A stretch of DNA of 63,803 nt, filler included, from Chrysochromulina tobinii (GCA_001275005.1; 7 parts of 7 records of this genome joined end to end with filler, not necessarily neighbours in it); one strand, 5' to 3'. Shown: positions 7,972 to 55,329, numbered from the whole stretch's first letter. The notes: generated from the letters alone by a model not told the origin. Made by a program: numbers and translations.

Positions 7972-10900
7972 CCTCGACCTGCACCTGCGTCTTGTCATCG
8001 CTCAATTTCGTCACCTTCCCAATGTCGGAGGCAGACTCAAACGGCGCGAGCACCGTTGGCGCCTTCTCGCCCTGAGGCTTGTCCGAGAGCATGACCTTGT
8101 CGCCGACCTTGATCGACTTGGCCTTATGCGCCTCCTCCCACTTGGTAAGAGACAGGCACAGGCTCTCAACCTCTCCGTCTCCCGCGCAATTCTCGAGCGC
8201 GACCGCGAGAACACCGCCCGCCGCGGCGCGAACCGTCGTCGGACGCGTCTCGTCGATCGAGATCGCGTAGATCGGTCCTGATGAAGGAGACCATCAGGAT
8301 ATTATGATACTACGTACTATGCCATCAGAGGTAATCAATAGGCCATCAATAGGCCATCAATAGGCCATCAATAGGCCATCAAGGGGCCATCAATAGGTCA
8401 TCAGCACACCGTACACCTCCGGGTCGAAGGCGAGCTCCGCGCGTAATCAAAGGTCATCAGAGGTCATCAAGAGCCCATCAGCGCACCGTACACCTCCGGA
8501 TCGAAGGCGAGCTCCGCCCGATGCTTCTCAAAATGGCCGAGCGTCCTCGCGAGCAGCACGAGCGCCAGCTTGCACACGGGCTCATCGTCGAGCGCCGCCG
8601 CGTCGCAAAAGTGCTTCACGATGCTCCCGTTCTCCTTCATCCGGTTGAGGACCACCGCGCCCGCCGTCTCGCCGCTCGCCGTCGCTGCTGCCGCGGCGGC
8701 GGTGTCGCCCGTCGACTCCGGTTCGTCATCCGTATTAGGCAAGCCCATGCCTGTGCCTTCGGCCTCGGTGACCGTGTTGAGCACGTCGAGCAGCTGGAGC
8801 AGATGGGCATGTCGCGCCGGCGGCGTCGCCGGATCACCCTGTTTGGCTTTGAGGTACTCGGCATTGCGCTTGGTCGCCTGCTCCACCTGATTAGGGAGGT
8901 AATCAGTCGCGCTCAGCTCGCAATCAGGAGACCATCAAGAGGCGACGGCGCACGATCGCCTGCTCCACCTGATGAGCTAGGCAATCATCGTAATCTGAGG
9001 CAACCATCGTCATCAGAGGCAATGCACCTCGCTTGGCAGCCACTTGGCCACGTTGTCGCAGAGCGCTTGCACCGGGGCCATGCCACCCAGCGTCATCGCC
9101 TTGATCAGGTCGAGCACCACATCGCGTAGCGCCGCCTCGAGCGCCTCCATATTCTTGTCGCGTAGGGGCTCGTCCGTCGCCGCGAGGAGGAGCATCACGA
9201 TGTCGGAGACGACCTCTTGCTCGAGGAAGGCGCCAAGGGCGGTCGCCTGCTCGGCCGTGGCGGCGGCGTCGAGTTGGGCGGCCTGTTTCTTGTCGATGCG
9301 TGCGGCGAGCGCATGCACAAGAGTACCGGCCTCGACGAGGTACCTGAATGAGGGAGGCAATCCGAGGTCATCAGAGACCATCCGAGGCAATTAGAGGTCA
9401 TCCGAGGCCATCGAGGCCATCCGAGGTCATCCGAGGCAATGGAGGCCATCAGAGGCCACATTGAAGGCCATTAAGAGGGGATTGGAGGCCATCAGAGGTC
9501 ATTAGAGGTCATGAAGAGGCCATCAGAGGCCATTAAGAGGGCATGAAGAGGGGATTGGAGGTGATTGGAGGCCAGCCGACGTACTGGAGGGTGGCTGGCG
9601 AGAGCTTCTTCGTGCCCAGCATCGCCTTCGACTGCAGCGAGCTCGAGAGCGAGGAGGTGCACTGTGGATCGATCTGCAGGGGCGGCCGCAGCGAGGGCGA
9701 TGCGCGCAGCATCTTAGCGAGCGTTCCGAAGAGACCAGTGAGGTTCCACTTGGGGAGCAGCTCGCAGAGAGGGTCCTTATTCCCTGGATCGAGCGCTTGG
9801 CTCATATCGGCCCGTGAGCGTTGCACGCTGCTCTCGCCCCACGTGATGGCGAGCGACAGCACTGGGCCCATCGATTTGGCAGCTCGAAAATCGATGCTCG
9901 TCGAGATCATCGAGATCGTCGCGTCGGCGGTGTCGCCGCCGCCGTCGGTGCCGCTCTCGGCGAGGGCACGGCAGATGCGCTCGCCCGCGCTGAAAACCTG
10001 CAGCACGCTCATGCCGCGCATGAAGATGTCGGTGAGCGTCTCGGCACGCGCCTTTTCGACCCCCTCAAACGGCGGCTCCGTCAGCAACGAGCGATCCGAG
10101 TTCTTCTTCTTCAGCTCATTCTCAATCTTGCGAGCACGTATCGTGCTGAGCAGCGCCGCGCGCTCGTCAAAGAGGACCTCGAAGCTCTGGCGCGCGCCCT
10201 CCATGGCCTCCATCAGCTGCTGTATCAGCGTCGCTCCCTCCGCCGAGCGCAAGAAGCGTCCCCACAGCTCGCACACCGAGTCCAGCGTGCTCACGTAGCT
10301 CGCAAGCGTCGCGAGTGCCGTGACTGCATGCAGCTGCACCCGCTCCGTGCGCATCGGATGGGAGAGCACCCACGAGATGACGCGCAGCGACGGCACGAGG
10401 GTTTCGTCATTGGGCGAGTCATCGGCGTGGAACACGGACTCCATCAGCGCACTCGCTGCCGACAGAGCGAGCTCAAGGACCTGCTGCCGTGGCTCCGAGT
10501 GATTGGCACCGGTGGTCGTGCCTGAGCACACAGTGGCACCGGCAGTCGGCGATCAGGGTCAATCAAGCGACGCACCCGAGATCTCTTTGAGCCACGCAAT
10601 CAATGGCAATCAATGGCAATCAATGGCAATCATTTCCAATCCATGGCAATCAAGGACAATCAAGGCTGATTAATGGACGGCGGCGCACCCGAGATCTCTT
10701 TGAGCCACGCCGAGAGACGATTGAAGACGTCACTCTGTCGCACCAGCGAGCGGCCTTGCTTGTACCCTCCCTTCTTAACGCCTCCGGGCAGCGCCTCCTT
10801 TCTGAGTGCCTCCGACGCACTGACCATCCCGGCCAGTGCATCCACGAAGCGCGGCGCCGTGACATCGGCAGCGTGCGCCATCGAGGCGACAGTGTGGTTG

Positions 10901-13900: not shown

Positions 13901-16900
13901 GATGCTGAGGGCCCATCGTCCGAAGCCTGGACGACATCCCCTTCTTTGAAGGTCATCTTCACAGTCTTGGCCTCAGCGGCCGCTGGCGGCGGCGTCCAGG
14001 CGGTGCACTTCAGCTCCGGCTGGTCAACCCAAGCATTACCGCCCGCGGCCGACTGCCATGTCTTAGAGCTCACGTCGGGTGAAGCAGCAGCTGAGTCTCT
14101 TAGGACCAGGTAGCCCTTCGTCGAACCGAGATCATCCTCAGGCTGCCCTATCCATGATTTCCCTCCAGCGAACGCAATCCAGCAAGTTGCATCGCTCGTG
14201 TGCCGATACGCGGGCCGTCCGTTTACAAGCTTCCTCGGATCAAGCTTGTAGGTGCCTCCGTATTTGGCCACATTTCCTGGCAGCGAGCCACCTTCGAGCT
14301 TGAGTCCGGGCGGAGCTTCCAGAATTCGGATAGCATGGTCGAAACGCGCGTCGCCGGGAGCCTGTACTTGACCCATTCTGGCTGCCTGCAGTGCGTTATT
14401 GTCCTTTCTAGTCTCCGCTGTCTTGTCCGCGCCGAATTCGAGGAGGACTCCGACCATCTCGCCATGGCCCTTGGATGCAGCCAAGATGAGTGCCGTGATC
14501 CCTTTGTCATCCGCCATGTTGATTAGGTTTGAGTCCGAGGCGAGCAGACTCTTCACATCGATCAACTGATTCTCCCTCACCGCCGTGTGTAGCTTCTCCA
14601 GTGCAGCAGCGCCACCACCGCCAAACATAAAGCCAGCGGGCGCGGGCGCAGGTGCAGCAGCGCCGCCGCCAAACGCGGGTGTGCTGACTCCCATCCCCGA
14701 AGCCTGCCCAAATATGGGCGTGCGAACGGGGCTGGCGCCGATAGAGAAGGCGGACGCCGGTGCTGGGCTGCCGAACGAGAAGGCAGGCGCCGATGCTGCT
14801 GGTGCCGTGGTAGACGGGCTGCCAAACGCGCCTGGCAGCAAGGCTGGAAGGGAGGTAGCCTTTGGTGCTTCGGGCCGCCTCGCCTTGTACAGCTTGGAGC
14901 GCGCCCCCGCACGATGGCCGCCTGGCTCGTCGTCGCCCGTCTGGTTTACCTTGAGAGCAGAGAAGCCGAAGCCGAGGGTCTGGTTGCCGTCGGCGGCGTC
15001 ACACCGGTCTGCCTCCCGACGGAGGATGCGGCCGCAGCACGCGGTGAGGCGGGCGGCGAGCTCGACGACGGGCTCGGCGGGGTGGAGCGAGGCGCGGCGG
15101 AGCAGCTCGAGAAAGGTAGCGCCGCCGTGGCCTGCCGCGGGGCTCGCCGCGCCGCCGTCACTTGCCACCTTTGTGCGCGCCGTCGTGAGCAGATGATGGC
15201 ACGTGAAGGGCGAGTCGAGGAGCAGGCGGTCGATCGCTTGGGCGCAGCTGGGCAGCAGCGCGGCCGCCAAAGACGGCGGCAGCTGGCCGCGACGCGGGTT
15301 CGTCGGTTTCGTCGGTTTCGTCGGTTTCGTCGGTTTCGTCGGTTTCATCGAGTCCACGCGGTCGTCGACGTCGAGGTCGCCGTCGACGTCGCCGTCGCCG
15401 TCGAGGGTGCGCGCGAGGCCAAGGGGCGTACCGGCGGCCAGATCGAGCTCGGCTTCGTCGGTTTCGTCGGCGAGGCCAAGGGGCGTACCGGCGGCCAGAT
15501 CGAGCTCGCTGGCGCCGTCGCCGTTCTCATCGCCATCGCCACGCGGCACGTCGACGCACAGCTCGAAGCAGCCGAGCAGCTGCACCACCGCCTCAGCAGT
15601 CGTGCTGTCGACAGGCTCCTCGGCCGGTCCGATGGTCGGTGGCCGCGCGGCAAAGTGACGCACGGGCGGCTTCAGCTTGTTCCGGTGCGCGTCGTGCGCG
15701 ACCGAGAGCCGGCTGTGCAGGTCGATCAGCACGCCCAGCTCCACTGCGTCCGACGCCTCGTTCGCGTTGTGCGATGACGTGGTGGTGGTGGTGGTGGTGG
15801 TGGCGCTCACGGCGGGCGCCGACTCTGCTGGCGCCGGGGCTGCAGCAGAGGGGCGTCTGAGGCGGCTCTCGAGCTGTGTGGAGAGGAAGCCGACCATCAA
15901 CTCGCACTGACTCTGCAGCGCACACGAGACGTTCGCACGGTGCGGCACCGACCGCACGACGCTCAGGATCGAGGCGACGTAGTGAGGCAGCAGCAGCGAG
16001 CTCAGCCGCGCGTCGCACGCGACCGTCTGTGCGGCTTCACACAGATGCTGCGCGACGGCATCGGCCAGCCTGGCTCCCGCGGGGCTGGCGGCGAGGGTGT
16101 TGACGAGCTTGGCCGCGTGCAGGCCGACCGCCTCGCTCGAGAAGCGCCATTGCCAGCCGCGGCTGAGGGAGGAGGGCGGCGAAGCTTGCCTGTGGGGAAA
16201 GGAGCGCGCGCGCCGTGGTGAGCACACTCGCATGCACGCCACCGAGGAGGGCGGCCAAGCCACCCCCGGCGATGCAGCATCGCCCTTCGCGGGCGCGGGC
16301 GCCGTCTCGGGCGCCGTCTCGGGCGCCGCCTCGGGCGCCTCGGGCGTCGTCCCGAGCGGCTCCTCGAGCGCTCGCACGCTCGTCGCAAGCATGGCCACCC
16401 GGCTGATCGGGTTCTCGTAGAGCTCCTTCGCATGGAGAAGGAAGAGGCACTCGGCCGCGTGTGGCATCGAGCCGTCGTTCGTGTTGAGCGCGCTCGAGGT
16501 GCTGTTCTGCACCTCGGTGCCATACGCTCCCTCGACGGCCGCCAGCAAGAAGCCGAGCACCTGCTCGAGCAGCGGCAGCATGCTCGGCTCGTTGGCGATC
16601 CGAAGGCTCGATGAGACACGCGCGAGGGCGATGATCGCGGCGTCGCACGTCACGTGGTCGTTGACGGAGTGCTGGCGGCGCAGCTTCTTGTCGACCTTGG
16701 ACTCGAACTCGAGCAGGCGGCTGAAGAGGCGCAAACAGTGGCTCAGCCGCACGCAGCTCTGTGCCTTCTCGTCCACGACTGGCTTCGCGTCGTGTCCCTC
16801 GTCCACAGCCGGCTTCGCGTCGTCGTGAACCTCGCGCACCCGATCCACGAGTGCTACGAGCGCGTGCGCGAGGTACACGGTGGCGTGCATGTTGTACAGG

Positions 16901-20619: not shown

Positions 20620-21087
20620 TGTGACGACCGGCGCGCCGCTCGGCAGGTGTTGCTCCGATATCGCGCGATTCAGCCAGGGCCCGACTTCACAGAGATCCAC
20701 TGACGACACGGCGACGATAGAAAAGCACCCGGCGGTTTCTATCGTCGCCGAGTTACGGTAACGAGATAATAACACCTAGCCGTGGAGCGCAATAACCCTT
20801 TTCGGCTTCAAAAGCGGATGCCGAGGCGCGCGAGTATGTCACACTCTCTGCGAGTTACGTCTCCAGACCCGCTACTTTAGATTCGGTCGCTTGGGTGCGG
20901 TCTTATGTGTTGGGCGGGTAGTGATTTCACATAGAAGGGTGTGCGATATCACGGGCGCGGGTGTGAATTTGAGATGAACGCCAACGAAGCATGGACGTGA
21001 TCTGCGTAACTTACACATCTAGGACCGCCGTCCGGCCTCGCATAACGAAACTCACGCAACGGGGCAGAGTCGAGTCGGTTCACTCAC

Positions 21088-26596: not shown

Positions 26597-28760
26597 GGCG
26601 GCTTCGGCGGCTGCTGCTTCGGCTGCTGCTGTGGGGGCGAGCGCGATGTGGGCGGCACCTGTGGCGCCGTCGTGAGCATCTCGAGTGCCGCCACCACGTC
26701 ACCATGGACGCGCTCGAGCGCAGTGCGGGCTGCGGGCGCGCTGAAGCCCATCTCGACCATCTGATGAGGGAGGCAATCATCCTAATGAGGGAGACAATCA
26801 TCCTAATGAGGGAGGCAATCATCCTAATGAGCGAGCCCATCTCGACACTCACCTGTTGCACACCGAGCGTCACGATTTGCTCGTGCTCGCTGCCCGCCGC
26901 GTGTGCGCTTGCTGTGCCTGCCGCCTTGGGCGCCGCCTTGGGCTGCGCAGGCTTTTGCGCCGTCGCCGGTGCGGCCAAGGACGCCGACGCCGCCGCCGCC
27001 GCCGCCGGTGCCGGCGACGGTGCGGCAGCTGGTGGCGCCCGTGACGGCGCTTTGGGTGGCTCGGGCGGCACCTTCGTCTTCGCTTCCTTGCCCAGCGCCG
27101 CCAGCAGCTCGCGCGCCGTCGTGAGCAGCGCGGCGCCCTTGTCCACCTTGGCCTCGACGCCAACGGTCTCGGCGCGTCGAATGGCGGCCTTGAGCCGCGA
27201 GCGCGTGCACTCCTCGTCATCGAGCACCGCCTGCAGCTCAGCGGCGGCGATGCGCGCGGCTTCGGACTCCTCGGAGCGACGTCTCTCGTCCTCACGTGCG
27301 CAGAGCAGGCGCTTGAGCGCCCCCTTGGCATGCGCTTGTACCTGTGGGGACGGGAGGCGCCGTGGTGAGCACTTGCATGCAGGGCAGGCGCTTGAGCGCC
27401 CCCTTGGGGCGGCTTCGATGGCGTGCGCTTGCACCTCCTTGCACACACCCACGCGCTGCGCCGAGGTGAGCACGCGCTTGATCACCTCCTCCTGCTCCTC
27501 GATGGCCACAAGCACCAGAGGCAGCTGCACGCTGCCGCCGCCGGCGCTGTCGCCCGCCGACCGGCGCTGCAGCTCCTCGATGCGTGCAAGCCCCTCGTCG
27601 ACGGCGTGGCGAAGCTCATGCTCCACCTCCGCCTTACGTATCTCGATTTGGACCTCACGCCTCCGGGTTTCGTCACGTCGCTTGGCCACTGCCGCCGCCT
27701 CCGCCTGCGCCTTCTCACGCTCTCTCTGGGCTTCCGTCTCGGCCTGGACGCGCTGCTGGCGCGCGCGCTCGCGCCACTCGCCCGCCGCCTTGGCCACCTC
27801 CGCCGCGAGCTGCGCGCCCTCGCTGTCGCTCACCCCGGTCTGCCCGTGCAGCTCGGCGGAAGCGATGCATGCGGCGGCGGCTTGATCGAAGGCTTCAGCA
27901 GCCGCTTCGTGCTTGCCGAGGCCCGCGAGCGCCATCCCGAGCCGCCCGTGCGCCTTGTCCCAGTCAGGTGAGAGCTTGGCGCACTCGACAGCGTCCTTGT
28001 AAGCCTCCTCGAAACGCTCAAGCTTGGCATAGGAGGCAGAGCGGTTCGAGAGCAGACGAGGGTTGCGCGTCGGTGCCATCGCCTTGAGCGCCGCGGAGTA
28101 CTGCGTCACCGCCTTGGCATACCTGCCCGCGGCGAAGGCCTGGTTGCCGCGCTGGCGCAGCTGGTCGGCGCGCGTGGGCTCGGCCGCCTCGGACGCCTTC
28201 TGCGCGCAACGTTGGCGCGCCTGCTCGAACTGTCGCTGCACTTGCTGCTGCGCACGGCGCATCTCCTCGCGCTGCGCCTCCTGCGCGCGCCGCCAGTGCT
28301 CCTCCTGATGTATGTGCTCCGTGCGAGACGTGTGCTCCCTGCGGTGGCGGATCCCATCCGCCTCGCGCTCGAATGAAAAGCTCCCATCGTGGCCGGCGAG
28401 GCCTGTGAACACAAAGCCGCTCCCCGGCGCAAAGACGCTTCCCGGCGTGCGGGGGCCGAAGCCGAACATGCGCTCGAGCAGGTCGGAGACGAGCTCGTCG
28501 TCGTCGTCGTAGACCACGACTTCTTCCTCGTCGTCTTCGTCGTAGTCGTCATCGTCCTCGTCATCAAAGCGGCCGGATTCATCGGCGGCTTGCAGGCACG
28601 TGTAGGCGTCTTGGATGCGTTGGAAGCGCTGGTTCGCGTCCGGATGCTTGGACTTGTCGGGATGCTCCGTGAGCAGCAGGCGACGGTACGCCTTGCGCGC
28701 GTCATCGAAGCTGGCGTCGGGCGCGAGCTCAAGAATCGCGCGAGCCTCGGATGTGCGCAT
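26597..28760 (-). CDS. J-domain / TPR / UBA co-chaperone (3'-truncated); exons 28760-27435, 27341-26853, 26760 to gap
   Basis: J domain with HPD, TPR triplet (GNQAF..GRYAKA; LLSNRSASY; WDKAHGRLG) and UBA-like MVEMGFS..ARTALE..GDVVAALEML after intron 26761-26852. Confidence 0.85.
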
Positions 28761-28933: not shown

Positions 28934-31900
28934 ATGGGCAACCAGCTCGCGTCGCTCTCGCACCAGCCCGACAACACGATCGCCCTGCCCGAGGGCGTGA
29001 CCTTCGAGGATCGCCTGGGCGGCGGCCAGTTCCTCAGGACGCTCAAGTGCGGCAGCGAGGACGGCGCGCTCGTGGTCAAGGTGTACTCAAAACGCGAGTC
29101 GCGCACGGCGCTCTCGAGCTATGAGGAGATGCTCGCCGTTGTGCGCGAGCGTCTGACGCTCAACGGCGCGCCCAACGTGATGCCCTTCCGCTGGTTCGAG
29201 GAGACACCGCAAGCCGCCTACCTCGTGCGCCAGTACTTTCACTCCAACCTTTTGGAGCGCATGAGCACGCCGCCCTTCCTGACGGTCGTCGAGAAGCGCT
29301 GGCTCGCCTTCCAGCTGCTGCAGGCGCTGCAGCAGTGCCACGCGGTCGGCGTGTGCCACGGCGACGTCAAGGCCGAGAACATCATGGTCACGTCGTGGAA
29401 CTGGCTGTTCCTGTGCGACCTCGCGAACTACAAGCCCTCCATCCTGCCGCAGGACGACCCGACGATCTTCAACTACTTTTTCGCCACCTCGCGCCGCGCG
29501 TGCGCGCTCGCGCCCGAGCGTTTCGTCGAGCGGCCGTCCATTGCTGCCGCCACTAAGGCCGCCGCCGCAGCCGCTCGCGACGGCGCGATCGTCGCGTCGC
29601 CCGCCGACGGCGGCGCCGCCGATGTGGGCTCTGCGCCGCCCCCGTCGTCGCCCGCGCCGCCCGCGCCGCCGCCGCCGCCGCCCGAGGGCTGCACCGAGCA
29701 CTCGGACGTCTTCTCGTGCGGCTGCGTGCTCCTCGAGCTCTTCACCGAGCACGGCGCGCCCTTTGAGCTGCCTCAGCTCCTGCGCTACACGCGCAATGAG
29801 CAAGGCGCACGCGAGCCTCTCGACGCGGCGCTCGGGCGGGTCAAGGAGGCGCCGCTGCGCGAGCTGCTCGAGCTGATGACGCGGCGCAATCCCGAGGAGC
29901 GCCCAGATTCTGCGCGCTGCCTCAAGCTCGCGCGCGGCACCGTCTTCGAAGAGAGCTTCTACACGTTCGCCTTCGACTTTTTCAAAGGGATCCGCCTGAT
30001 GGACCAGCACGCGCAAGCAGCGGAGCTGTGCGACCACTTTGAGCGTCTGCTTCTCGAGCTCGCTCCTCCCGACGAGCTCGCCCCCGCCGCCGTCGGCGGC
30101 ACGGCTGGGCTCGCGGCGGCGGCGGCCAAGGCGCAGGCGGGCGCGGCCGGCTACCTCGAGCGTGTCGAAGAGACCAGGCGGGCACAGCAGCAGCAGCAGC
30201 AGCAGCGGCAAGAGGCGGCCGCCGTCAAGGGCGTCCCCGCGAAGCCGGCGGCGGTGGCGACGGTGGCGAGCTCGTCCGAGGGCGCCGAAGGCGGCGGCAG
30301 CTGCCTGGTGCTGCTCGTCGGATGCTTCTGTGCCTCCATTCGGAATGTGACCTCGTCCGGGCTCAAGCTGCGATGCATGCAGTTGCTGCTCCGTCTGGCG
30401 CTGCGGTGCGAGGACGCGGTGCGCACGCACCGCGTGCTGCCCTATCTGATCGCGCTGCTCTCCGACCCCACGCCGCTTGTGCGCGCCGAAGCGATCGCGC
30501 TCACCTCGGCGCTTCTCGCCTCGGTCGAGACGCTGCAGCCGTCCGACGAGCGCGTGATGCCCGACTACGTGCTGCCCGCCGTCTCGCGATGCGCGCACGA
30601 CCCCGAGGAGCTCGTGCGCTGCGCGCTCGCGCGCACGATCGCCGAGCTCGCCGAGACGGCGAAGAGATTCATCGAGATCTCGCAGTGGATGCGCGTCGTC
30701 ACGCTGCGCAGGGACGGCAGCGGCGGCGGCCTCACGGCGAGCGCCCTGGGCGGCGGGAGAGACAGCGAGGCGCCCGCGGCCATCCTGCAGAGCTTCGACG
30801 CCGAGCTGGGCGCTCTGCGTGCGGACGTGGCGCGCGTCGTGATCGACCTGGTCACCGGCGACATGGTCGCGTCGTCCTCCTCGGTGCGCCGCTCGCTGCT
30901 CGACGATCTCACGCGCCTCGCCATCTTCATGTCGCGCCAGCTGACCAACGATGTGCTCCTACCCCACTTCATCTCCTTCCTCAACGACCGCGACGCCGCG
31001 CTGCGTGTCGCCTTCTACGAGTCCATCGCGGGCGTGTGCGCCTTCGTGGGCATAGCTTCGCTCGAGGCCTTTGTGCTCCCGTGCATCCTGCAGGTGATTG
31101 CATGCTGATTGCGAGTTGATTGCATGCTGATTGCACCTTGCGAGTGCATGCTGATTGCTCCCGTGCATCCTGCAGAGTGGGCTGTACGACGTCGAGGAGG
31201 CCGTCGTTGCCGCCGCGCTGCACTCCCTCTGCCGGCTCGCGGACGTGCACCTGCACACACGCGCCTCTCTCATCGAGATCTCGACCAAGGTGGCGCCGCT
31301 GCTCACGCATCCCAACACGTGGGTCCGTCATGCGGCCGTTGCCTTCTTTGGCTCGGTCGGCCAGCAGTTTGCACCCGTCGAGACCTTCTGCCTGCTCCGT
31401 CCGGTGCTCCGACCGTTCCTGGCCCGCCCGCTGCTCTCCCTCGAGACGAAGCTGCTGCTCGCCGCGCTCAAGCCTCCCGCCTCCCGACTCATCTTCGACC
31501 TCGCGCTCGCCTGCGCCGCCGAGCAGCAGCAGCTGCACGCCAACCTCCTCACCCTCAATGGCGGCGCCGTGCTGGGCGTGCCGGGCGCCGTGCCGGGCAG
31601 CACCGACGCGGACGCCGTGTCGCGGCTCGGCTTCCAATCGGCCGAGGACGTGTCGGCCTTCGACGGCCTCGACGTCGACGACGACGAGGGCGGCGAGCCC
31701 GATACGGCGCTTTGCGAGGCGCTGCTCATGTCGGGGGCTCATGAGGTGAAGGCGGCGCCGCCCGGTGCGCCGTCGGCGAATGCGACGGCTCCGGCGGCGC
31801 AGGCGCTGGCGGCGGGGACGGCCTCGTCTGGGCTGGCGGAGGTGGCGCCACTCGCGCTGCACCAGGTACGTTGATTGCCACTGATGACCTGCCTTGCATG

Positions 31901-34056
31901 CAAGTGCTCACTACAGCGCGAGTGCTTCGCTGAGCTCGCGCTGCACCAGATGGCGCTCGATCTCACGTGGATTGCCACTGATGACCTGCCTTGCATGCAA
32001 GCGCTCACCACAGCGCGCGTGCTTCGCGCTGCACCAGATGGCGCTCGACCTCAGGTCGATCCCGTCGCTCTCGCCGGAGGAGGAGGCGGTGCTGCAGGCG
32101 ATGCGAGAGTACATTCGCGCCGCGTCGCTCCAAAAGATGGCCAAAGTCCGCATGTGGGAGACCGAGAATCTGCAGCTGCTCCAGCAGCAAATCAAGGGAG
32201 GCGGCGGCGGCGGAGAGCTAGTAGCCTTCCGAACCCTCTCGCAGCACATCAAGGTCCATCGGCTCGGCCCGCCGCAACCCCCTGCCTCGCCCGCAAAGCC
32301 CCGCGGCGGCTCGCTCATCGGCAGAGCGCGTACCGGAGCCGAGATCAAGCCAGCCTCTCCCTCAGCGTCGCCGGCGTCGCCTCGAACGGCGGGTGGCGCC
32401 GGCGCGGCCGGAGGGATGCTGGAAGGCAATGGTGGCGTCGGTGGCGTCGGTGGTGGTGCTGCGGCGGCCGGGGGGGGCGGCGATGGCGCCGACGGCACCC
32501 AGCCCAAACGCACGACGTCCATGGCGGCGCGCGCGACGTCCATCGCGAAGGCCAATGTTGCCATCTTTGGGCGTCCCAAGGCTCGGGTGGACGTCGCGGC
32601 GGTCGGCAGGGTCGGTGCGGAGGTTGGCACGGCGATTGACGAAGCCGCCTGGCCCGCAGGCCGTCGGCTGCCCTCGGGATGGCATGGATGCGCGACACCG
32701 GGCTCGTTGGTGGCGGCGCTGCGCGCCCACCCCGAGGGCGTTCGCCAACTCGTGCGCTCAAGCGACGGCCAGTGGATCGTCTCACGCGGCTCGAGCTCTT
32801 CGTTGCACCTCTACAGCAGCCGTGCGCTCATCGAAGAGTTCTCCCATTCGCCCATCGCACGCCAGCCGCTGCCCGGGCAGTCGGTGACCGCCTCGGGCGT
32901 CGCCTTCTGCATGCAGGACGCCGCCGTCGCGCTCGCCACCAGTGACGGAACTCAGGCGCTGCAGGGTTCGGCTTCGTCACACGTCTCGCTGCTCGCAATG
33001 GAGCGCTTCGGCGCACCCGACGCGCTCATCTCGCGCTTCAGCCTGTCGGGCGAGCAGGGCTGCCTGCTCAATCTGGGAGTGCTCGGCGGCGGAGGAGCAG
33101 GCGGAGGCGGAGGAGGTGGTGGAGGTCTCGTCCTGTACACGACGGAGTCGGGCGAGGCTTGCGCCATCGACCCTCGCTCAGGCGGCGCCGCGTGGCGCGT
33201 TCGATGCGGCCGGCCCCTCGGCCTCATGCAAGCCCACGCGACGGACGCGGCGGGCCAGTGGCTCGTCCTCGGATCGAGCACAGGCCACTGTGTGCTGTGG
33301 GACCTGCGCTACTCACTCAAGCTCAAGCTCGCCACGTGGCAGTGCCCGAACGCCTCGCGCGTGCACACCATGCTCGCGGTGCGTCCGCCCGCCTCGACGC
33401 GCCCGACGCTGTTGCTCGGGACCGATGACAACCTCGTGCTCGGGTACGAGCTGGGAGACGAGAGTCCCCGATGCACCTTGCTGCTGCAGCCTGAGACAAC
33501 GCCCGACGCCCTCGCCTTCGCCGCCGCTGCGCCCGTGCGCCCGCCGCAGTCGGTCCTTCAGCCGTACGCCCTCACCCTCGCTGCCACAGCGGCCGGCCCA
33601 GCGGCCGCGGCGGCGGCGGCGGCGGGTAGCGCCTCGGTGCGCGCTCTAGCGGCACCTCTGGATGGGAGCTGCGTGCTCACGGCGAGCTCGGACACTCGAC
33701 TGCGCTGCTGGCAGCTGCGCGCCGAGCCGAGCACTTCATTCCTCGTGGGCGGCCAACCGCTCGACACGCTCCCCACACGCTTCGAGGAGGTGCGTGTGAG
33801 CCAGCTGGCCGGCTGCCGTGTGGTGCGCGAGGTGCGCGCCTATGCGCGAGATACCTCATCGGTCTCACTCGGCACGGCGGGCCCCGCGAAAGACATGGCG
33901 CAGCGACCAGCCACCGTGGGTGCAGAGGATATGGGCTGCGCGGCCGCGGTGACGAGCATCGTGTACTGCCCCGCGCCACAGGCGCAGCAAGCAGGCCTCC
34001 TGCTCGCCGGCTCGCTTGATGGCACCGTGCGCGTGTGGCGCCATGTACGTGTGTGA
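28934..34056 (+). CDS. VPS15: PI3K regulatory subunit VPS15/PIK3R4; exons 28934-31093, 31176-31865, 32038-34056
   Basis: MGNQL myristoylation start, kinase-like domain (EKRWLAFQLL, HGDVKAENIMVTSWNW), HEAT repeats and C-terminal WD40. The two introns restore one frame. Confidence 0.95.
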
Positions 34057-35077: not shown

Positions 35078-35124
35078 GCTGGACGCACGTGGCGAGGCGC
35101 TGGCGCCTCCGTCGTCCACGTCAG

Positions 35125-39285: not shown

Positions 39286-41697
39286 ATGATGATGGTGTGT
39301 CGGGCGCAGGTCCTGCTCGCTCTCCTGCTGCTCCCCACGGCGGCGCCCGCGGTGGTTGCGCTCAATGCGCGCGCGCCGCCGCCGCTGTCGCGATTGTCGA
39401 CCTCCCATTCGTCCGCCGAGGTCCCCCTGCCGCCGACCGCTGAGCTCACAACGCACGTCATAAACAATGAGCAAACCCTGGTCCCTTCGGCGGCCCATGG
39501 CGCCATGCCATTCGTCAGCATCGACGCGAGCAACCAGACGCTAAACATCCATCCGGCCGCGCTCCACGCGCTTGCCAGCGCGCCCGCTCCCATCTGCGTC
39601 CTCTCGATTGCCGGCGCCGCCCAGGAGGGCAAGTCGGCATGGCTTAACATGTTCTCGCACTGGCTGCGCGAGCGCTGGCCGACGGTCGGCGCCACAGACG
39701 CGGGTGTCCCCTTCAAGATCGGCCGCAGCATCTTCGACGACGACTCCACGCAGGGGGCGTGGCTGCGCGTCTTCACCGGAAAGGGTACGACGGCCCGCCC
39801 CTCTCCCCCCTTGGCTCTCTATCGCGAGCCTCGCGGGCCGCCTCGCTCACGCCCTGCCCTCCCACACACTCTGCCCTGACCCCCCGCCTTGCCCTTGCGC
39901 TGGCAGAGGGGCGGCCGTTGCCAGGCACCGAGTGCATCTCGGTCGCCTTGATCGACACGCAGGCACCGCCGCGGGCGCTCTCGCTCGACGCGGGCCCCGA
40001 GAGCGGCGTGGGCGTCAGCGCGGGCGCGCACAAGCTCTTCTCCCTTGCCACGCTCGCCTCGTCTGTGGTGACGCTCAATGTGATGAGCCCTGCCCTGAAC
40101 CTTTTCGGCCCGCTCGGTGCGATGCTTCGCGACACGCAGCGCCACCTGCTCGAGCCTGCAGCGGGTGGATTCGTGGGCGAGCCGCCCAATCTCGTGCTCC
40201 TCGAACGAGATGTGCTCCGTCCGGCGGCGTCGACGGCGGTGCTCGAGTACGCGATGCTCGAGCCGCGCGGCGACGCGCTCGACGACGCGCGCGCCGCCGT
40301 GCGCCGCCTCTTCCACAACCGAACGTTGGTACAGATGGCGCCACCCGAGGCCGCCGATCTCGACGCGATCTCGCGAGGCGAGATGCCGCCGCAGCACCGG
40401 CTGCGCAACCTGCCGCTCTCGGGCGTGCGCCCCTTTTACGCGGGCTTCGACGCGGCGGCGAGCGCCACCGTGGGCGCTCTCCGCCCGAAGACGCTCGGCG
40501 GCATGCCCCTGCATGGACGCGAGCTGGCGGAAGCTCTCGTGGGTCTCTCGGTGGCACTCAACGAGCACGCGCCCGCGTCGCTGGCCGCCCAAGTGTACGA
40601 TTCGCTGCGGGCGCAGGCCAAGGAGGCGGCTGATGCGGCGGTGCGTGCGGGTGTAAGGTCCCTCCGCCGCTTCCTTCCGTATGCTGACGCCCTCGACACC
40701 GCATTACCGGTGGGCAGCGGCGGTGGTACGAGCAGCCTGGAGGCGTCACAAATGCGAGCACCTCGCGTGGCCCTCATGTCAGCGTCGTCGCTCGAGCTCG
40801 CGCTGCGGAACGCGACGCAGTCGGCACTCGATGTATTCGCCCAGCTGGCGCCCCGCTATGGCTCAGACCCGATGGACGGCGAGCCTGCGGGCTGGCTGGC
40901 TCCCTACTTGCGCTCTGTGCTCACTGAGCTGGGCTCTCTCTCCCGCCAGGCGCGCCAGGCGCACGTGCACGCGCAGCGCCTGTACGCGCTCGCGCGGCGC
41001 GAGCGCCAGCTGCTGCGACGTCTTCATGAGGCCGAGGCTGTGACTGCGGCAGCCGTCGAGAGCCGTGTGAAGCAGGCCCTCGCCGAGCGCCTTGACGAGC
41101 GCCTCGGGCCGGCGGCCGCGGCCGTTACACAGGCGCACAGGTCGTGGCTCCCCCATTCACCGCCACAGCATCACTCGGCGAGCGGGTCGGGCGGATTGGA
41201 TGATCACTCAGCGACTTGGGACGCGACGGCCGTGCCGCAATGGGCACGTAACCGCCAACTGCGCCAGGTACGCTTCCTAAAATGGGAGACGCTCGACCTC
41301 GCATGCAAGTGCTCACCACGGCGCCCTCTCTTGTCCACAGGATCTGCTGTCCAACCTGCTCCTCCTCGCGCTCGGGGCCTCGGCGGCTGTGTGCCCACCG
41401 GCAGCGCTCATACGGGTGGCACCCCTGATGGCGAGCGCCCCCACCGTCTTCGCCCTGATGGGTATCTATCGGCTCGCCCAGCGGCCCGTGGCCAAGGCGG
41501 CAGGCTTCTTTTGGGGCAGTGTGCGCTCTGTGAGCAGCGCCGTGCTGGGCGCCGCCTCGCGCTTGACGCAGCGGCTGGATGCATCCCTGGCCTCCCTCGT
41601 GACCGGGATCGCCGAAAACCTTGTGAACGACGAGTTTGGCCAGCAGCTTGTCTGCGGCCATAGCTTGCGAAATGTGCCGTGCGCGCCGCCGGCGTGA
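39286..41697 (+). CDS. GBP/atlastin-like GTPase-fold membrane protein; exons 39286-39784, 39907-41267, 41341-41697
   Basis: VLSIAGAAQEGKSAWLN (G1), STQGAW (G2), LIDTQ (G3), KLFSLATLASSVVTLN, LLERD (G4) and RPKTLGG. Hydrophobic N-terminus and C-terminal hydrophobic segments. Confidence 0.75.
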
Positions 41698-41939
41698 CAC
41701 GCGCCGCCGGTGCATGCTGAGAACTACGCCAGAGGGCCACCGGATGCATGCATGTCTACGGCGCACCCGCTGAGCGAGTCGCGCGCGTGTGTGAGATGAT
41801 GTCCATGATGGGCGGCGGTGATCGATGCGAGTGTGCCGAGTGCCCGGAGTTCCTACGCGTAGTTGGGCGCCGTACAGTAACCATGTATGTTAGTAACGGG
41901 CGGTTTTCACGTTCACAGTGATTTCAAAGGTTTTGGAAA

Positions 41940-42011
41940 GTCAAGTCAAGTCTATACATAAACAACAGACACCATACGGAAGCCTATCGACTTGACTTGA
42001 CTTGACTTGAC
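41940..42011. mobile_element. 72-nt fold-back/MITE-like element with GTCAA-repeat arms and candidate 7-bp TSD
   Basis: GTCAAGTCAAGTC ... GACTTGACTTGACTTGACTTGAC, flanked by TTGGAAA at 41933-41939 and 42012-42018. Confidence 0.55.
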
Positions 42012-42134
42012 TTGGAAAGCTCGAGAGACGGCGCGCTCTCTCGCGTCTCGGCCGGCAACGCTCCCTCTTCTCCAGCCATTCTGCTCCGTCGAGCCACACG
42101 GCTGCTGAGCTTAGCCGCAGCGCGGACGCCTGCT

Positions 42135-42614
42135 ATGTCGGCAGCTGGCAACAAGTATGGCATCGCCGAGGTCGCCGGCGACGCGTCCACAACTGAAGAG
42201 CTCCAGGCGTGCAAGATTGGCGGCTGCTGCGGCAAGGATACGCCACTATTGCCAGTAGATGCCATCATGGCGAGAATGAGCGCCCTTCCAGACTGGACGC
42301 TCTCCGCCGATCAGAAAATAATCACCAAGGAATTTGTGGCCAAGAACTGGGCTGCTGCGATGGGATTCTTCAACGCTGTCAGCGAGATTGCAGAGGCTGA
42401 AGGGCATCATCCTGATTTGCATCTGACAAACTGGCGAGACGTACGCGTCGCTCTGTCGACGCATGCCATCGGCGGGCTGTCGATGCCAGATCTGGTCTTG
42501 GCGGCGAAGATCGACGCGATTGCTGTCGAGGTTTCGCCAAAATGGCTGCGCGAAAGACAAGAAGCCAAGGCGACTGGCAAGAGTGGTCAGCCCCACGACG
42601 CGGTGCTCAGCTGA
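42135..42614 (+). CDS. Pterin-4-alpha-carbinolamine dehydratase
   Basis: EAEGHHPDLHL..VALSTHAIGGLS..DLVLAAKID catalytic signature. Confidence 0.92.
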   Translation: MSAAGNKYGIAEVAGDASTTEELQACKIGGCCGKDTPLLPVDAIMARMSALPDWTLSADQKIITKEFVAKNWAAAMGFFNAVSEIAEAEGHHPDLHLTNWRDVRVALSTHAIGGLSMPDLVLAAKIDAIAVEVSPKWLRERQEAKATGKSGQPHDAVLS

Positions 42615-43189
42615 ACCCTAGGGCTCTTCGCGTCGTTGTGTTTCTATTGCATGGTATACGATAAGATCTCTAGTCGGGGCGGCGCTCCGCGGCGGCGGCG
42701 GGGGCGATCAGCCGAGCCAGCGCAACCGCCGAGCGGCCGGCGCGGTCGAGTTAGCGTAACAGGGATGCACGCGGCGACCGCCACGCGCGCCCGCACCGAA
42801 ACACACGGACGCGGACTCTCATAACTTTTGTGTATATTCCTGATGTGACATTATAATAAGGATAGCCAGTAAACGTAGGTCGTAGCGTTAAATTGCAGCG
42901 CCGCAGTATGATGACCCAAAGTCTGTGACTCCATCTGTCACCCCTCACCAGAGGAGCGGAGGAGTCCCGGGGAGGGCGTGGCAGCTACGGAGCTAACAGC
43001 TTACACTGAGCGAGCAGGGGCGAGGCCGCGAGGGCGCATGCATTACTGGCGCTCACCGCGATGCGGGCGACGAGCTCTCGGCTTAGGCGCACAGCGCAGC
43101 TTCCGCGAAGATCTGCGCCACGACGCGAGCTCACCAGCGCGCGATAGTCATCGCGTGGCGCCGTCGAGTGATGTGTAACACCCTAGCAC

Positions 43190-43726
43190 TCAGGGCTTGG
43201 CATCGGGCTTCGTAGGGTAGATTTCGCCCATCAAGGCGTCGACCTCCTCCTCGGAGAGCTCCTCGAAGCGCTTCTGGATCACAGCATTCTCGTAGTCGCG
43301 TAGCTGCTGCGCGTACGTCATGTCCTTGTTGGCGACGCGGAAGACGTAGCTTCCTGTCCACACGACAGTGCCCACACCCACGTAGCCTATCAGGATGACG
43401 TTGCCTGCGAGCACGACGTCCCACCCAAGGTTGTCAAGCATGAACGAGTAGGCGACGAACGGCAGCACGATTCCGACGATGGACCAGAAGATGATGCCGC
43501 CTTTAGTGTTCGGGTTGAGGAAGAAGGGCAGCGACTTCTTGTCGCTCTCCGCAGGAGCAGCTAATGTTGGCGCACACGCACGCGACGTGACGGCTGCCGC
43601 CGGGAGAGGCGACAACCCGCTGATGGCAGCACGGCGCGAGGGAGCCGCAAGCGCTGACGGCGGCGTGCGGAAGCCGTGGACCACGCCGAGGCCAAGGGCG
43701 AGGAGCGGGAGCAGACGTGCCGCCAT
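43190..43726 (-). CDS. DUF3007-family plastid membrane protein with bipartite targeting peptide
   Basis: Signal peptide plus Ser/Ala/Arg-rich transit peptide, two TMs, and WTGSYVFRVANKDMTYAQQLRDYE..QKRFEEL. Confidence 0.85.
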   Translation of the reverse strand: MAARLLPLLALGLGVVHGFRTPPSALAAPSRRAAISGLSPLPAAAVTSRACAPTLAAPAESDKKSLPFFLNPNTKGGIIFWSIVGIVLPFVAYSFMLDNLGWDVVLAGNVILIGYVGVGTVVWTGSYVFRVANKDMTYAQQLRDYENAVIQKRFEELSEEEVDALMGEIYPTKPDAKP

Positions 43727-43879
43727 CTCTACTTCGGGAAATCTGGAAGTTTCATTCACAACACGATCGCACCAAAAGTTTCACAGACACAAGTACTCTT
43801 TTCAGTGAGCCAATGGTTAACATTATTATAGCATTCGCACCGCGAGACTAGAACAGGCAGCACTCCAACTCCTGGCGAC

Positions 43880-46685
43880 TCAAAAGACCGAAAACAAGAA
43901 GCGGGTGTCAGGTAGTGGCTGGATGAAGTCCGTCAGATGCACGAACTCGCGAAGTTCGGCGTCGTCCTCCTTGAAGGCGACGAGCTCCTGATCCCAACGC
44001 CGTCGCCACATCGCGGCTGGCTCCGCCGCCGCTCCCGCCGGGCACGGTGCCGTGCAGTGTGCCCCCGCAAGCCGCCCATCCACCACGCGCGCCGACTCGA
44101 GCGCGGCCTGGGCCAGCGCGCCAGTCTGCCGTTGCGCCGCCGCCGTCGGCTGGAGCGGCTCCCAGCACGTCTCCCAGCATGGAAGTGGCACTTTGCTGCC
44201 CGGCCTCGTATAGTCGCTCACCGGCCGATTGGCGCCCGGGTCGGCGCTCCAGCGGCGCGTACACCGAAAGCGAAGCTCGTCGGGCCCGAACTGGGCCCAG
44301 AGCGGCCAGCAGCCGACGAGGTCGAATTCTGGCACCACGTCACCTGTGGGGAAGGGGGGGGCGTGGTGAGCACTTGCATGCAGAGCGGCCAGCAGCCGCC
44401 GAGGTCGAATGCTGGCACCACGTCACCTGAACAGTTCGCGCACGAGAGTCGCGCTCGCTCGTGCGGCTTATACCAGGACGCGAGCTCGTCCACGTCCCAG
44501 ATGAACCCGTTCGGTAGGGGGATCTTGTAATGGTGCGAGAGCTGCACGCCGACGGCGCCCGCTAGGGTCCTCGGATCGAGGCTCGCCTGTGCCTTCGATT
44601 GGAGTGCGAGGGCCGCTCCAGCTTGATTCAGTAGCTGGGCGCGGCGCACGAGGGATGCTCCAGCGGCCGCGACGCGCGCGTCGAAGGCCAAGCGGGCCGC
44701 CTGATAGAGGGGCTCATCGGTCTCCATGCGGGCACACAGCCGTTGGAGCACGGCATGCGGCGTCACCGCCCCACACGACTCCGGCTCGAACCACGCGTAT
44801 CTGGTCTGCTCTGGGGCAGGCACGCCGGGGATGTCGCACGGGCCGTACCTGTGGGGTGAGGGCGCCGTGCTGAGCACTTGCATGCGTGCAGGGATGTGGC
44901 ACGGGCCGTACCCAGCACAGTCCATCATGCCCGCAGGCCCTCGAGAGTCGCCCTGCCCGCGACGGCGCTTGAAGTCCGCCGCCGCCGATGCGGACTCATC
45001 CATCCTCTTACGGATGTACCTGCACGGCCATCAGAGGCAGTCAGAGAGGCCATCAAGAGAGAGGCCATCAAGAGAGAGGCCATCAAGAGAGAGGCCATCA
45101 AGAGAGAGGCCATCCGAGAGGCCATCTAGAGAGCGACCAGAGAAGCCATCCGAAGGGCCATCTAGAGAGCGACCAGAGAGGCCATCCGAGAGGCCATCTA
45201 GAGAGCGACCAGAGAAGCATTCTCAGACCATCTCAGAGAGGCATTCCGAGAGGCCATCCGTGACCATCAGCGGCACTCTGCGGCACGCACTTGAGAAGCG
45301 CTTCTGGCGGATCGGCGGTGAGCGAGGCACAGCTGCGCTGTGTCCATCGGATGGCCGCGTCGCGCGCCGCCTCGGTTTGTGCTGTGGAGAGCTGGCTTCG
45401 ATACGCGGGCACCTGTCATGCGACCATCAGACCAAAGGTCAGCTATAAAGTCGGAGATGCGATTGGAGATGCGATTGGAGATGCGATTGGAGATGCGACT
45501 GGAGGCACTCAGACACTCCGGAGAGCTGTCGTGCGTTGTGGTGGGCACGGGCGTTGTGGCGGGCACGGGCGTTGTGGCGGGCACGGGCGTTGTGGCGGGC
45601 ACCTGGAGGCCCACGAGGTCCGTCAGCAGGATCAGGAATTCGTCAAAGCGCTCAGTGACGCCCACGAGGTCGAAAGCGGCCCACATGCGTGCGAGGGCCT
45701 GGTGGTGTGGTTCGCGTAACGGCTGAACGCCCGGACCGCCGTGGCAGGCGAGAGCCATCGCCATACGCGACTGGCAGTCGAAGGGGCTGTTCCAAAAGCA
45801 GAGCGGCACGCGCTCGTTGACGAAATGGTGGTGCCACGAGATGTGGGCCATGAGCGGATGGCGGAGCAGCGTGACGAGATTGCACCGGCAGCCGGCGCCG
45901 CGCAGCTTCGCCCGCAGCAGCAACAGGTCGGGCAACGTGTACTTGAGGAACTGCTCGTAACCACCGCCACCGATATGTATCTCGACGGCGAGACGCATGC
46001 CGGAGAGTCCGCCGGGCTGTCGCAGCAGCGTATCGAGCCGGTGCGTCACCATCTGGAACTGCACCTTGTTGTACCGGTTCACAAACGAGAAGAAGTCGAA
46101 GAGGCCGAGCTGCGCATGACGCTGGAAGATTGAGCGGAGCGTCGTGCCCGCTGTCTTCTCGAGATGGTGGAAGAAGACGACGGAGCAGTTGGGGAGCGGC
46201 TGCACAACCACGGCATCGGGCGGCGCTGCTGTGGGTGCCGCTGTGGGTGCTGCTGTGGACGCTGCTGCGGCCGCGGCTGCCTCGGCCTTCTCAATCGCCT
46301 CGCGCGCCTTGAGGGCTTCCACCGCCTCACGCTGCTTCCGCGCCTTCTTTGCCGCCTTCTCAGCCGCTCGCCGCTCGGCCCCAAAGCGCGCCTTCTTCGT
46401 CGCCATCTCCGCGAGCCTCTCAGCCTCGCGACGTGATCTTTTCTCCGCCTCGAGAGATTCCTCCAGCGAGCTCAGGCGCTCGTTGAGCTCCTTGGCCTCT
46501 ACGAGCAACGAACTGCCACCACGCAAAGGAGCCACACTCGCCGAAGTTGTTGGCTGCATAAAGCACAGATACGCGACGATGACCACCCCAAGGAGCATGG
46601 CGACTGCTGCACCGTTGCTGCGCGTCTTGGACGAGCTGGCGGAAGCCAGGCCGGCTCGCTGAACTACTAAATCGCGCGGTTGCAT
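43880..46685 (-). CDS. Type II membrane sulfotransferase-like protein; exons 46685-45603, 45412-45291, 45019-44912, 44848-44427, 44343-43880
   Basis: N-terminal TM and stem, PAPS-binding-like FHHLEKTAGTT, VTLLRHP and FDLVGVTERFDE. Four GT-AG introns give one continuous frame. Confidence 0.8.
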
Positions 46686-46864
46686 TTCCCGCGGGGCTCC
46701 GCGGAATCGGCGCCGTAGTGGGCAAAACTTCGGCGCCACCCGCAGGCTCGGGCACCCTTTTGCTTTGGCTTCGAGGGAGTTTGTCCTTTCAATGTTTATA
46801 TAAGACTTGACTTGACTTCCTTTCACAGCAGGGCGACGTCGCCGCGACGAGAAATCGTCGCGAA

Positions 46865-53452: not shown

Positions 53453-53928
53453 TGCGATGCGTGAGGGTCTGTGAGTGCCGTGGTAGCTGATGCAAAGGCG
53501 GGATGGGGGGGCAGAGACTCAGGCAGAGACCAGAGTGCGGCGCGGGAGTACGGGGGGCGACACCATGTCCGCGCAGTGCCGCCGGCCCGGCGATTTCTCG
53601 GGACGGTCGCGTTTGCGTGACGGGGAGCGTGGGGCGCGGCCCACCGCCGGCGGGCCGGACCCGGAGTGCGGCGGCGATAAGTTATCGCCGCGGATACCAC
53701 GCACGCCACTCCTCGTCCTCCGCGGCGCGGCGTGTTGTGAGAATCGTATGGTGGCGGGAGCCTGGTGTGTGGTGAGTAACTTTTTTCTGAACTATCAACT
53801 AATTTTCACTTTTCCGCTCGAGCGTCGTCTCTGTCGCGTCGCTTCGCCTTCTGCTCGTTGTGACATCTGACAATCGGCATACCAGAGAAGTCCCCCCCGG
53901 GAGATGGTGCTCACGCGCTGTGCACTAA

Positions 53929-55329
53929 CTAATCGCCCCTATCGCCCCTGCTGCCTCGGCCGAGTTTGCCGAGAAAGTTGCCGAGGGACCCACTTTCGAC
54001 GGCGCTGGGCGGCGCCAAGCGAGAGCGCTCGCCGCGCAGGTCTTCGTTCATCGCGAGGCGAATCTCGTCTCCAGTGAGACCGCGGCCGAAGAGGTAGGCC
54101 ATCTTGGTCGAGATGGCCTCGATGGTCATATCGCCGGCTGAGATGACTCCAATGTCGAGCAGCCGGCGGCCCACCTCATAGTCGTCGAGCGAGACGGTGC
54201 CTTTGGTGCACTGCGAAGCGGCGACGACGAGCACCCCGCGCTCGATCGCGTTCTCGATGGTGCGCAGGAAGCCCGCCTTGCGCGACGGACCGTTGCCCGT
54301 ACCGTAGAGCGAGAGAACGAGCCCCCGGAGCTTGGACGAGTACCGTACCTGATGAGGGAGGCAATCAGCATGCACTCAGAGATCCGGATCCTTTCGAGTT
54401 CCGTCAATTGGGAGCTTCGACGAGTACCGTACCATGCTCTCGATGGCTGAGTCATCGAAGCCGGGCACTAGATGCAAGACCACGATAGAGGTGTCGAGCT
54501 TCAGGTGCACGCGCAGGCGCGAGGTGGGCGGCCGGCGCCAGATCGCGCGATCGCTCGAGATGCGCGCGCCCACGGTCGCGAGTGGCGGGAAATTGGGCGT
54601 GTCGAAGGCGTCGAGGCCGTTGGAGTCCACCTTCGAGGCGCGGTTGCCTCGGAGCAGCCGATCGTTGAAGAAGATGGCGACCTCGCACAGCTCGAGCTGC
54701 GCGGCGAAGACGACCGAGATCAGCAGGTTGCGCCGCGCGTCGTTGTAGATCTCTGCGAGTGGGATCATGGATCCAGTGAGCACCACGGCCTTGCCCAGGC
54801 CCTCGAGCATGAACGAGAGCGCGGACGCCGTGTACGCCATCGTGTCCGTGCCGTGGATGATGACGAAGCCGTCGTAGTCGAAGTAGCAGTCGCGCACCTG
54901 CGTAGCCAGGCCTACCCAGTCATCGGGCCCGATGTTGGAGCTGTCGATGAGCGGATCGTACTCGACGATGTCGATCTCGGGCATCGACGGCTCGTGCATC
55001 TCGGGCATGTTACGGATGCATTGGGCCAGGTAACCCTTGAGCGGCGTGAGGCTGCCATTCTGCAACGTCATACCCATCGTGCCGCCTGTGTTGATGAGCA
55101 GCACCCGGCCGGCCCCGGGCCTGTTATCGAGCACGTCGAGGTCTGACTTCCACCCTCGCTCGGCGTCGTCCTCCTTGCGAGAGAAGAGCGGCACCGGCCA
55201 GCTGCGCTGAGGCGGTGGCGGCGGGGCGTGCACCGCCGGGCCCTCGGCTGGCTCCTGCAGCCGCAACAATCGCAGCCGCGGCTGGCAGCTCAGCGCCGTC
55301 AGGAGGACTCGGCCGACGGGCCATCGCAT
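53929..55329 (-). CDS. L-asparaginase, type I; exons 55329-54433, 54348-53929
   Basis: NTGGTMGM, HGTDTMAY, VLTGSM, LYGTGN, SQC and GDMT motifs. Intron 54349-54432 removes an in-frame stop. Confidence 0.95.

Follow-up and report, generated by a model that had tools for sequence, protein, structure and literature searches.

Half-copied introns in Chrysochromulina tobinii: a shared splice-signal cassette, variable exon duplications and a likely chain reaction of introns seeding introns

The window analyzed here, a stretch of 63,803 nucleotides (nt) from the freshwater alga Chrysochromulina tobinii (GCA_001275005.1), consists of seven contigs linked by N-linkers with about 63% G+C, so that the interval 8278-54432, presented by the initial annotation as one stretch harboring an intron-generating system, is not a single locus. 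It carries genes for VPS15, an L-asparaginase and a DnaJ-TPR protein, together with a gene near 44 kb; the names VPS15 and asparaginase are supported, whereas the "sulfotransferase" of the initial annotation is without Pfam support, and 6 of the 10 open reading frames (ORFs) of the window are absent from the protein collection compared. Annotation by eye, which was not exhaustive, recovered 16 cassette-bearing intervals and about 6 ordinary-looking introns (see Table 1 for the principal features). Many such cassette-bearing introns are composed of part of a shared cassette joined to a copy of the adjacent exon. The genome has been described as 59 Mb in size and likely haploid, with 16,777 genes that average about one intron each (PMC4580454); the 7 copies of the cassette-A core in the window would, by crude extrapolation, correspond to about 6,500 per 59 Mb.

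The wider sample comprised at least 135 metagenome loci chosen by an exact match to the 19-nt core of cassette A, and is hence biased to intact cores; removal of 10 redundant loci left 125 non-redundant loci, which with the window form the basis of the counts given below for core classes, junction microhomology, B-type acceptors, GCATGC retention, type II uniformity, unspliced copies and variant sharing. Core copies, counted with up to 2 mismatches and including the window, numbered 211. Two groups of cassettes were distinguished: 1) group A, in which the core includes CTCAC, a putative branch-point-like sequence, and which ends in a pyrimidine tract and CAG; 2) group B, composed of 10-15-nt repeats of the motif TGAT(T/G)GC. 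We term type I those introns with an exon-2 copy followed by the 3' half of the cassette, and type II those with the 5' half of the cassette followed by an exon-1 copy. The 211 cores fall into 77 type I, 15 type II and 6 full-length copies, with 113 in arrays, internal or unclassified. Duplications of type I span 9-46 nt (with one array of 69), in introns of 57-94 nt with a mean insert of 53 nt, and the left overhang of the cassette is spread continuously from about -3 to 43 nt; those of type II span 9-34 nt, with two arrays in addition. As the initial annotation had held, the duplicate supplies one of the splice sites, GT in type I and AG in type II. The full-length copies (the 6 above plus that at 41268-41340) show end matches of only 3-7 nt. 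The B group displays the same footprint, with duplications at 10 of 27 acceptors.

The exon matches of the five introns cited in the initial annotation are far beyond chance: among 1488 random position pairs sharing the first two bases, matches of at least 13 nt occurred in 0.2% and of at least 20 nt in 0.07%, and a core-spanning repeat with a score of at least 12 was found around 127 of 165 unique exact cores in the metagenome loci as against 35 of 400 shuffled flank pairings. The duplicates differ from their exons at 79 of 1872 positions (4.2%), with 29 of 77 being perfect. Among introns with confidently coding flanks, the frame survives clean excision in 42 of 44 cases of type I and in 10 of 11 of type II. 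Three broad features of introners are seen here, namely shared sequence in unrelated genes (211 cores in 125 loci plus the window), splicing that restores the coding sequence, with exceptions, and homologous sites that lack the intron (see below). Narrower signatures are absent. There are no terminal inverted repeats (TIRs), as the ends of the full-length copies are by reading not complementary and the first 15 nt of the fold predicted for 41268-41340 are unpaired, nor are short direct terminal repeats common to the copies, the end matches being target-specific. The duplication lengths, continuous over 9-46 nt, do not conform to a fixed target-site duplication (TSD) of 3-9 bp; hence the earlier claim of variable duplications with neither fixed length nor TIRs is borne out. 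That of a fixed cassette is not, given that both ends vary, that parental flank is carried along and that some copies are inverted or unspliced. Published introner cataloguing demands similarity at the two intron ends (PMC9860276), a feature of 6 full-length copies among the 211 but lacking in 92 half copies. Nor do both splice sites come from a duplicate free of foreign sequence, as in tandem genomic duplication, since the inserts average 53 nt.

That the segments are introns is supported by several lines of evidence. The full-length copy at 41268-41340 is spliced in the RNA runs X13, X14 and X15 and unspliced in the DNA run X9. Removal of 54349-54432 yields an asparaginase of 438 amino acids (aa), identical to the annotated C. 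tobinii protein KOO53767.1, which points to this species or a strain very close to it as the source, and the resulting junction is gap-free in 19 of 21 aligned homologues (22 of 120 matches were aligned, one of them a read-through). Open frames after excision support the introns in VPS15, DnaJ-TPR and the 44-kb gene; retention of 44344-44426 would shorten the ORF from 732 to 647 aa. The five exon copies of the initial annotation were all recovered by an anchored match measurement at the coordinates and with the mismatch counts it had given. Its contention that splicing restores the mRNA exactly holds commonly but not universally, as the overshooting insert at 16190-16263, the additional VPS15 residue and the inverted copies discussed below demonstrate. 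An assembly artefact or retained sequence would be an altogether improbable explanation: the introns recur in independent assemblies at 96-99% identity, the copies carry mismatches, and a DNA unitig from run X9 spans 41985-45072, including both 44-kb duplications, without differences, which renders mis-assembly unlikely even though X9 is possibly the window's own source. What speaks for it is that, among the 15 of 24 RNA joints listed, those of the five cited introns are not found, the joints at 27342, 31094 and 54349 lying outside read coverage. For the 83-nt intron at 44344, the X13 RNA depth gives a weak hint of excision, with flanks at 27.9 and a bin mean of 22.8 where 22.3 is expected if it is skipped. 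Runs X19-X21 contained next to none of the words sought and were excluded.

Table 1. Cassette-bearing intervals and associated features of the window
Position	Strand	Feature	Observation
8278-8486	-	B-type repeat intron; 53-nt duplication spans its own 5' splice site	Proteins P0197 and P0203 continuous across it
8887-9027	-	B-type intron (8969-9027), then without a gap a type I B intron (8887-8968) that has a 13-nt exon-2 copy	Proteins P0203 and P0206 continuous across both
9344-9584	-	B-type repeat-array intron; exon-2 match of 8 nt	
10522-10688	-	Intron holding an inserted B-type array; 31-nt duplication over the 5' splice site; boundaries by eye	Insert junction away from any splice site
16190-16263	-	Core-A insert; 17-nt duplication running 4 nt past AG	75-nt gain stays in frame within a 2214-aa ORF; probably retained
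26761-26852	-	B-type intron with three tandem 3' cassettes; 13-nt exon-2 copy	
27342-27434	-	DnaJ-TPR gene, type I: exon-2 copy of about 42 nt, interrupted by 14 inserted nt, then core A and 3' tail	16 nt copied, 14-nt insert, then about 26 nt more
31094-31175	+	VPS15, type II: B-type 5' repeats and 20-nt identical copy of the exon-1 end (supplies AG)	One additional residue at the junction versus 9 distant homologues
31866-32037	+	VPS15, two tandem type II core-A units; 14-15-nt exon-1 copy	1622-aa protein obtained only with the distal AG
41268-41340	+	Full-length core-A intron; cassette holds both splice sites; CAG/G (slash at the splice point) at each end	
44298-44343	-	Exonic counterpart of the 46-nt duplication	
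44344-44426	-	Type I: 46-nt exon-2 copy (supplies GT; 2 mismatches), core A, pyrimidine tract, CAG	
44849-44911	-	Type I: 21-nt exon-2 copy (1 mismatch), 5-nt filler, core A, 3' tail	63 nt; in frame without a stop if retained
45020-45290	-	B-type repeat-array intron; no exon copy	
45413-45602	-	Repeat-array intron; exon-2 copy of 8 nt	
54349-54432	-	L-asparaginase, type I: 22-nt exon-2 copy (1 mismatch), about 30 nt of foreign filler, B-type 3' cassette	

Homologous sites lacking the intron, of the kind that the initial annotation anticipated, were found in a pair of genes with 85% identity (L060 and L086), which on the basis of a motif putatively encode ornithine decarboxylase and which may be orthologues or paralogues. 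L086 is empty at two positions where L060 has duplication introns, and the single complete duplicate of L060 (29 nt, perfect) matches the exon of L060 and not that of L086. Asparaginase homologues with 66-83% identity are likewise uninterrupted at the site of the intron, although some may be transcripts or spliced models. On the other hand, none of the listed close-strain proteins that reach the site lacks the asparaginase or the VPS15 intron (the listing covers 15 of 70 members for asparaginase and 15 of 53 for VPS15). The empty sites and the strain-wide presence together imply that the gains are lineage-specific yet mostly older than the sampled strains. Consistent with this, the divergence of the strains at most shared loci is 1-2%, below the 4.2% of the duplicates; hence the notion of recent gain requires qualification.

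A third intron is common to L060 and L086, with its 5' half remodelled. This could suggest that full-length introners with short TSDs made the intron positions, and that the exon copies were added later in place, by slippage or by recombination with an intron-less allele or a complementary DNA (cDNA), without giving rise to any new position. The existence of full-length copies, a difference of one 94-nt unit between L031 and L077 (which may be an assembly collapse), the location of 7 of 77 type I introns immediately after an existing acceptor and a trade-off between duplication and filler length (slope -0.75, partly a measuring artefact) could all be accommodated by such remodelling. We nevertheless consider it improbable, because the foreign exon scraps described next demand copying between sites, inverted in-frame copies cannot come from an intron at that place and, among the few homologous pairs, no site had a full-length and a half allele across strains.

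Two introns retain recognizable pieces of a parent. An L063 intron contains an 18-nt piece of L061 exon that is in no other locus; the two lie about 1.9 kb apart and probably belong to one gene. The L058 intron contains 16 nt of the exon adjoining an intron of another gene, that of L017, and a rare 5' variant is common to these two introns alone; the direction of copying would follow from which gene's exon the scrap comes. In two further pairs (L049/L080 and L009/L111), each made up of different genes with unrelated exons, 9-10 nt of the element end recur at the exon ends; such a match is found at 27 and 13 of 24449 AG sites in the background, those loci included. At 14 flush left junctions the mean microhomology is 1.43 nt as opposed to 0.54 (p = 6e-4). 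Hence, both junction microhomology and an identifiable template, as expected of the templated insertion that the initial annotation suggested, are observed, albeit in small numbers. Inverted copies occur in L020, where the copy is in frame without a stop, and in L103; each lies near a sense intron with an identical rare variant. There are also copies in which both ends lie away from any splice site. An automatic test of unspliced copies yielded 5 confident cases (3 in frame and 2 not), which alone is no proof of a selective filter.

These irregular copies also bear on the nature of the template. One alternative is that a reverse transcriptase or Pol theta, acting at a nick, used an RNA as template, either the pre-mRNA or an excised intron: every copy in the window is genic, several of the donors traced belong to the gene that holds the copy and type I stops at AG. 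Further, the mismatches of the duplicates are rich in transversions, as expected of error-prone copying (33:46 as against 46:27 among strain differences, p = 0.01, the latter being mostly coding differences and thus biased). However, daughters hold parental sequence over exon-intron borders and beyond the AG, so that excised introns cannot be the sole template, poly-A tails are absent from the printed copies, and both halves and both orientations occur; we accordingly regard an RNA template as quite unlikely. The more specific proposal of target-primed reverse transcription of one RNA is likewise argued against by the loose ends, parental flank and inverted copies: its signature, a fixed 3' end with truncation confined to the 5' side and usually an A-rich tail, is contradicted by the 3'-truncated class and the overshoot beyond AG, together with the lack of tails in the printed copies. 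An origin of the tandem arrays from lariats by rolling-circle copying was also considered and dropped, as the array units extend beyond the branch point.

We favor, with about evenly balanced confidence, a process in which a staggered break or stalled fork is repaired by copying from an intron already present, guided by short homology, and the products are then filtered by selection. In its favor are the loose ends, the parental scraps, the targets that share bases with the element end, the junction microhomology, the inverted copies, the preservation of frame on excision and the empty sites of L086. The steps would be as follows: 1) DNA synthesis at the break or fork would jump, by means of a few matching bases, onto a cassette-bearing intron. 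2) About 25-75 bases of this donor, serving as a DNA template, would be copied, a Pol-theta-like or fork-restart activity being a candidate polymerase. 3) Synthesis would rejoin the target gene 9-46 bases back, thereby duplicating the flank. 4) Selection would keep those events that splice out cleanly. 5) As the product retains the branch point and one splice site it could serve as a donor again, resulting in a chain reaction with no master element. The stronger form of this proposal, namely a masterless self-propagating system in which any cassette intron, half copies included, donates, so that thousands of introns arise with no dedicated transposase, we advance tentatively, as somewhat less probable than an even chance.

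Several observations weigh against this copying from intron to intron. At least 92 of the 211 cores are clean introns and all 14 motif matches in the window lie inside introns; a splice-blind process predicts neutral intergenic copies, unlike these data, so that targeting to genes or splice-like sites would be needed. The 5' cassette of type II is near-uniform (0-4 differences per 49 nt in 12 of 15), as if derived from a master element, and AG precedes 22 of 26 type II cassette matches as against 29 of 77 type I donors. GCATGC is kept at the left edge, with matches ending there in 25 copies versus inside it in 6, a sharp retention for which splicing alone is an insufficient explanation. Of the flush junctions, 4 of 14 lack microhomology, and the signal of local similarity, though in favor of copying, is weak, with neighbors on the same contig sharing variants at 0.55 versus 0.45 (p = 0.039; 165 pairs on 28 contigs). 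Finally, no enzyme for the copying has been identified.

Some of these points would be explained by a Replitron-like non-autonomous copy-and-paste element mobilized by a Rep/HUH protein, in which one end is placed precisely after AG and the other is fuzzy, with a variable duplication made by repair. In type II the uniform 5' cassette, the AG target and the parental flank are as expected of such an element and agree with the insertion signature of Replitron-1; a 12-bp palindrome is read at the core edge; the GCATGC retention and the restriction of window copies to introns fit an enzyme; and one Replitron protein has been recovered from the C. tobinii genome (PMC10288648, accessible part). That signature is absent from type I and from copies with both ends loose. 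Type I, the mirror image, is more numerous (77 as against 15 of type II), and to account for it the other strand would have to bear a further fixed end unrelated to the first; moreover, the unrelated B cassette leaves the same footprint, copies with neither end fixed occur, direct terminal repeats are lacking, donor and targets share up to 10 nt and no transposase is seen in the window. We therefore consider such an element rather unlikely. The routes may coexist, with an enzyme seeding type II and full-length copies and repair copying spreading the halves.

Certain cassette copies have ended up in coding sequence. L062 (reverse strand, about 96-222) contains an 18-nt tandem array from the cassette core, translated in frame as AHHGAD repeats, and is an intron signal turned protein repeat. 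In L020, L010, L006 and L011 cassette pieces are in frame within low-complexity protein (e.g. GAVVSTCMQ, MQVLTTA and ACKCSPR), and such in-frame peptides may mislead annotation. Among unusual splice sites, the type II introns of L017, L026, L082 and L096 would take AAG acceptors from the duplicated exon with no pyrimidine tract, and L049 and L080 would use GC donors. Introns abutting at AG/GT with no exon between them, as at 8887-9027 and in L029, L031, L040 and L118, are candidates for recursive splicing. Beyond the alga, IMG/VR viral contigs gave a single core-A match (L136, with core A and the 3' tail in a contig of 68% G+C that has the look of host DNA) and no B-motif match, and prokaryote genomes only 2 matches, which lack cassette flanks and are judged to be chance. 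Elsewhere in the window, a 1034-aa ORF (56075-59176, minus strand) has a weak tyrosine-recombinase match (PF00589, E 6e-4, below the cut-off) and is possibly a DIRS- or Crypton-like element. AAGTC/GACTT pentamer arrays lie close to gene starts (41938-42020 and 46805-46820), the former with very deep coverage in the DNA run, indicating an abundant repeat. An intergenic inverted repeat with arms of about 16 bp is found 3' of a gene (20706-20745), and 59278-62300 is a contig without any clear gene, made up of repeats of 127 nt and of 33-66 nt and showing a purine-rich strand bias.

Where most new introns come from is not settled, and in the known cases of mass gain entire transposons, fixed at their ends, are responsible. 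In the present alga, which is cultured, likely haploid and has wild relatives, one can read the scar left by intron birth, the empty site and in some cases the parent, which makes the mechanism testable. If a masterless system of the kind proposed above is indeed at work, each intron would record its parent and a genome-wide pedigree of intron births could be read, and introner searches that require both ends would overlook an entire class. The findings also expose a blind spot in the published introner catalogues, which, when checked as the initial annotation proposed, list none for C. tobinii: a 2025 introner table has no family for it in the part accessible, and Gozashti 2022, whose filter demands similarity at both intron ends, included it among the genomes searched and names it once in the accessible part of the supplement (PMC9860276). 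The literature searched, which held few subscription papers and did not extend to the marine introner consensus sequences, contains no description of this pattern.

Comparison with known systems, drawn from the accessible parts of the papers cited, places these introns as introner-like in behavior, yet at variance with the both-ends, TIR and fixed-TSD criteria: 1) The sharp contrast with known introners drawn by the initial annotation was excessive, as Gozashti 2022 describes a TIR-less introner family in a Chrysochromulina TARA metagenome-assembled genome, with a 4-bp TSD and a co-opted 3' site (PMC9860276); this marine family may be related, yet, compared by description only, the present duplications are of 9-46 nt, either half may be absent and parental flank is carried. 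2) In Chlamydomonas reinhardtii, insertion of Replitron-1 takes place after RG (Craig 2023, PMC10288648); its left end is precise, its right end carries parental flank and has a palindrome nearby, and the TSD is variable and includes RG. Replitron-1 and N1 are thus alike in copy-and-paste movement, insertion after RG, fuzzy parental-flank end, variable TSD and palindrome, but they are 0.9-3.6 kb long, have a single fixed end and direct terminal repeats of 6 bp and are not described there as intron-forming, whereas here there are 25-75-nt pieces, a mirror-image class and junction homology. 3) Intron gain at staggered breaks in Daphnia pulex similarly combines an insert with a direct repeat of the adjacent exon and shows repeated secondary insertions, but the repeats measure 4-12 bp and most inserts are of unknown source (PMC4202315); in the present case longer repeats are seen, the inserts come from other introns and the process recurs across the genome. 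4) The introner-like elements of dinoflagellates have one site in the element and the other from the TSD and occur in both orientations, but differ in being whole-element copies with class-specific fixed TSDs of 3-8 nt (bioRxiv 10.1101/2020.10.14.339549). 5) In tandem duplication of AGGT-containing exon segments the duplicate likewise yields a splice site and splicing re-creates the coding sequence, but both sites come from the duplicate with nothing foreign (PMC3443670), whereas in the introns described here the cassette gives the branch point and the other site.

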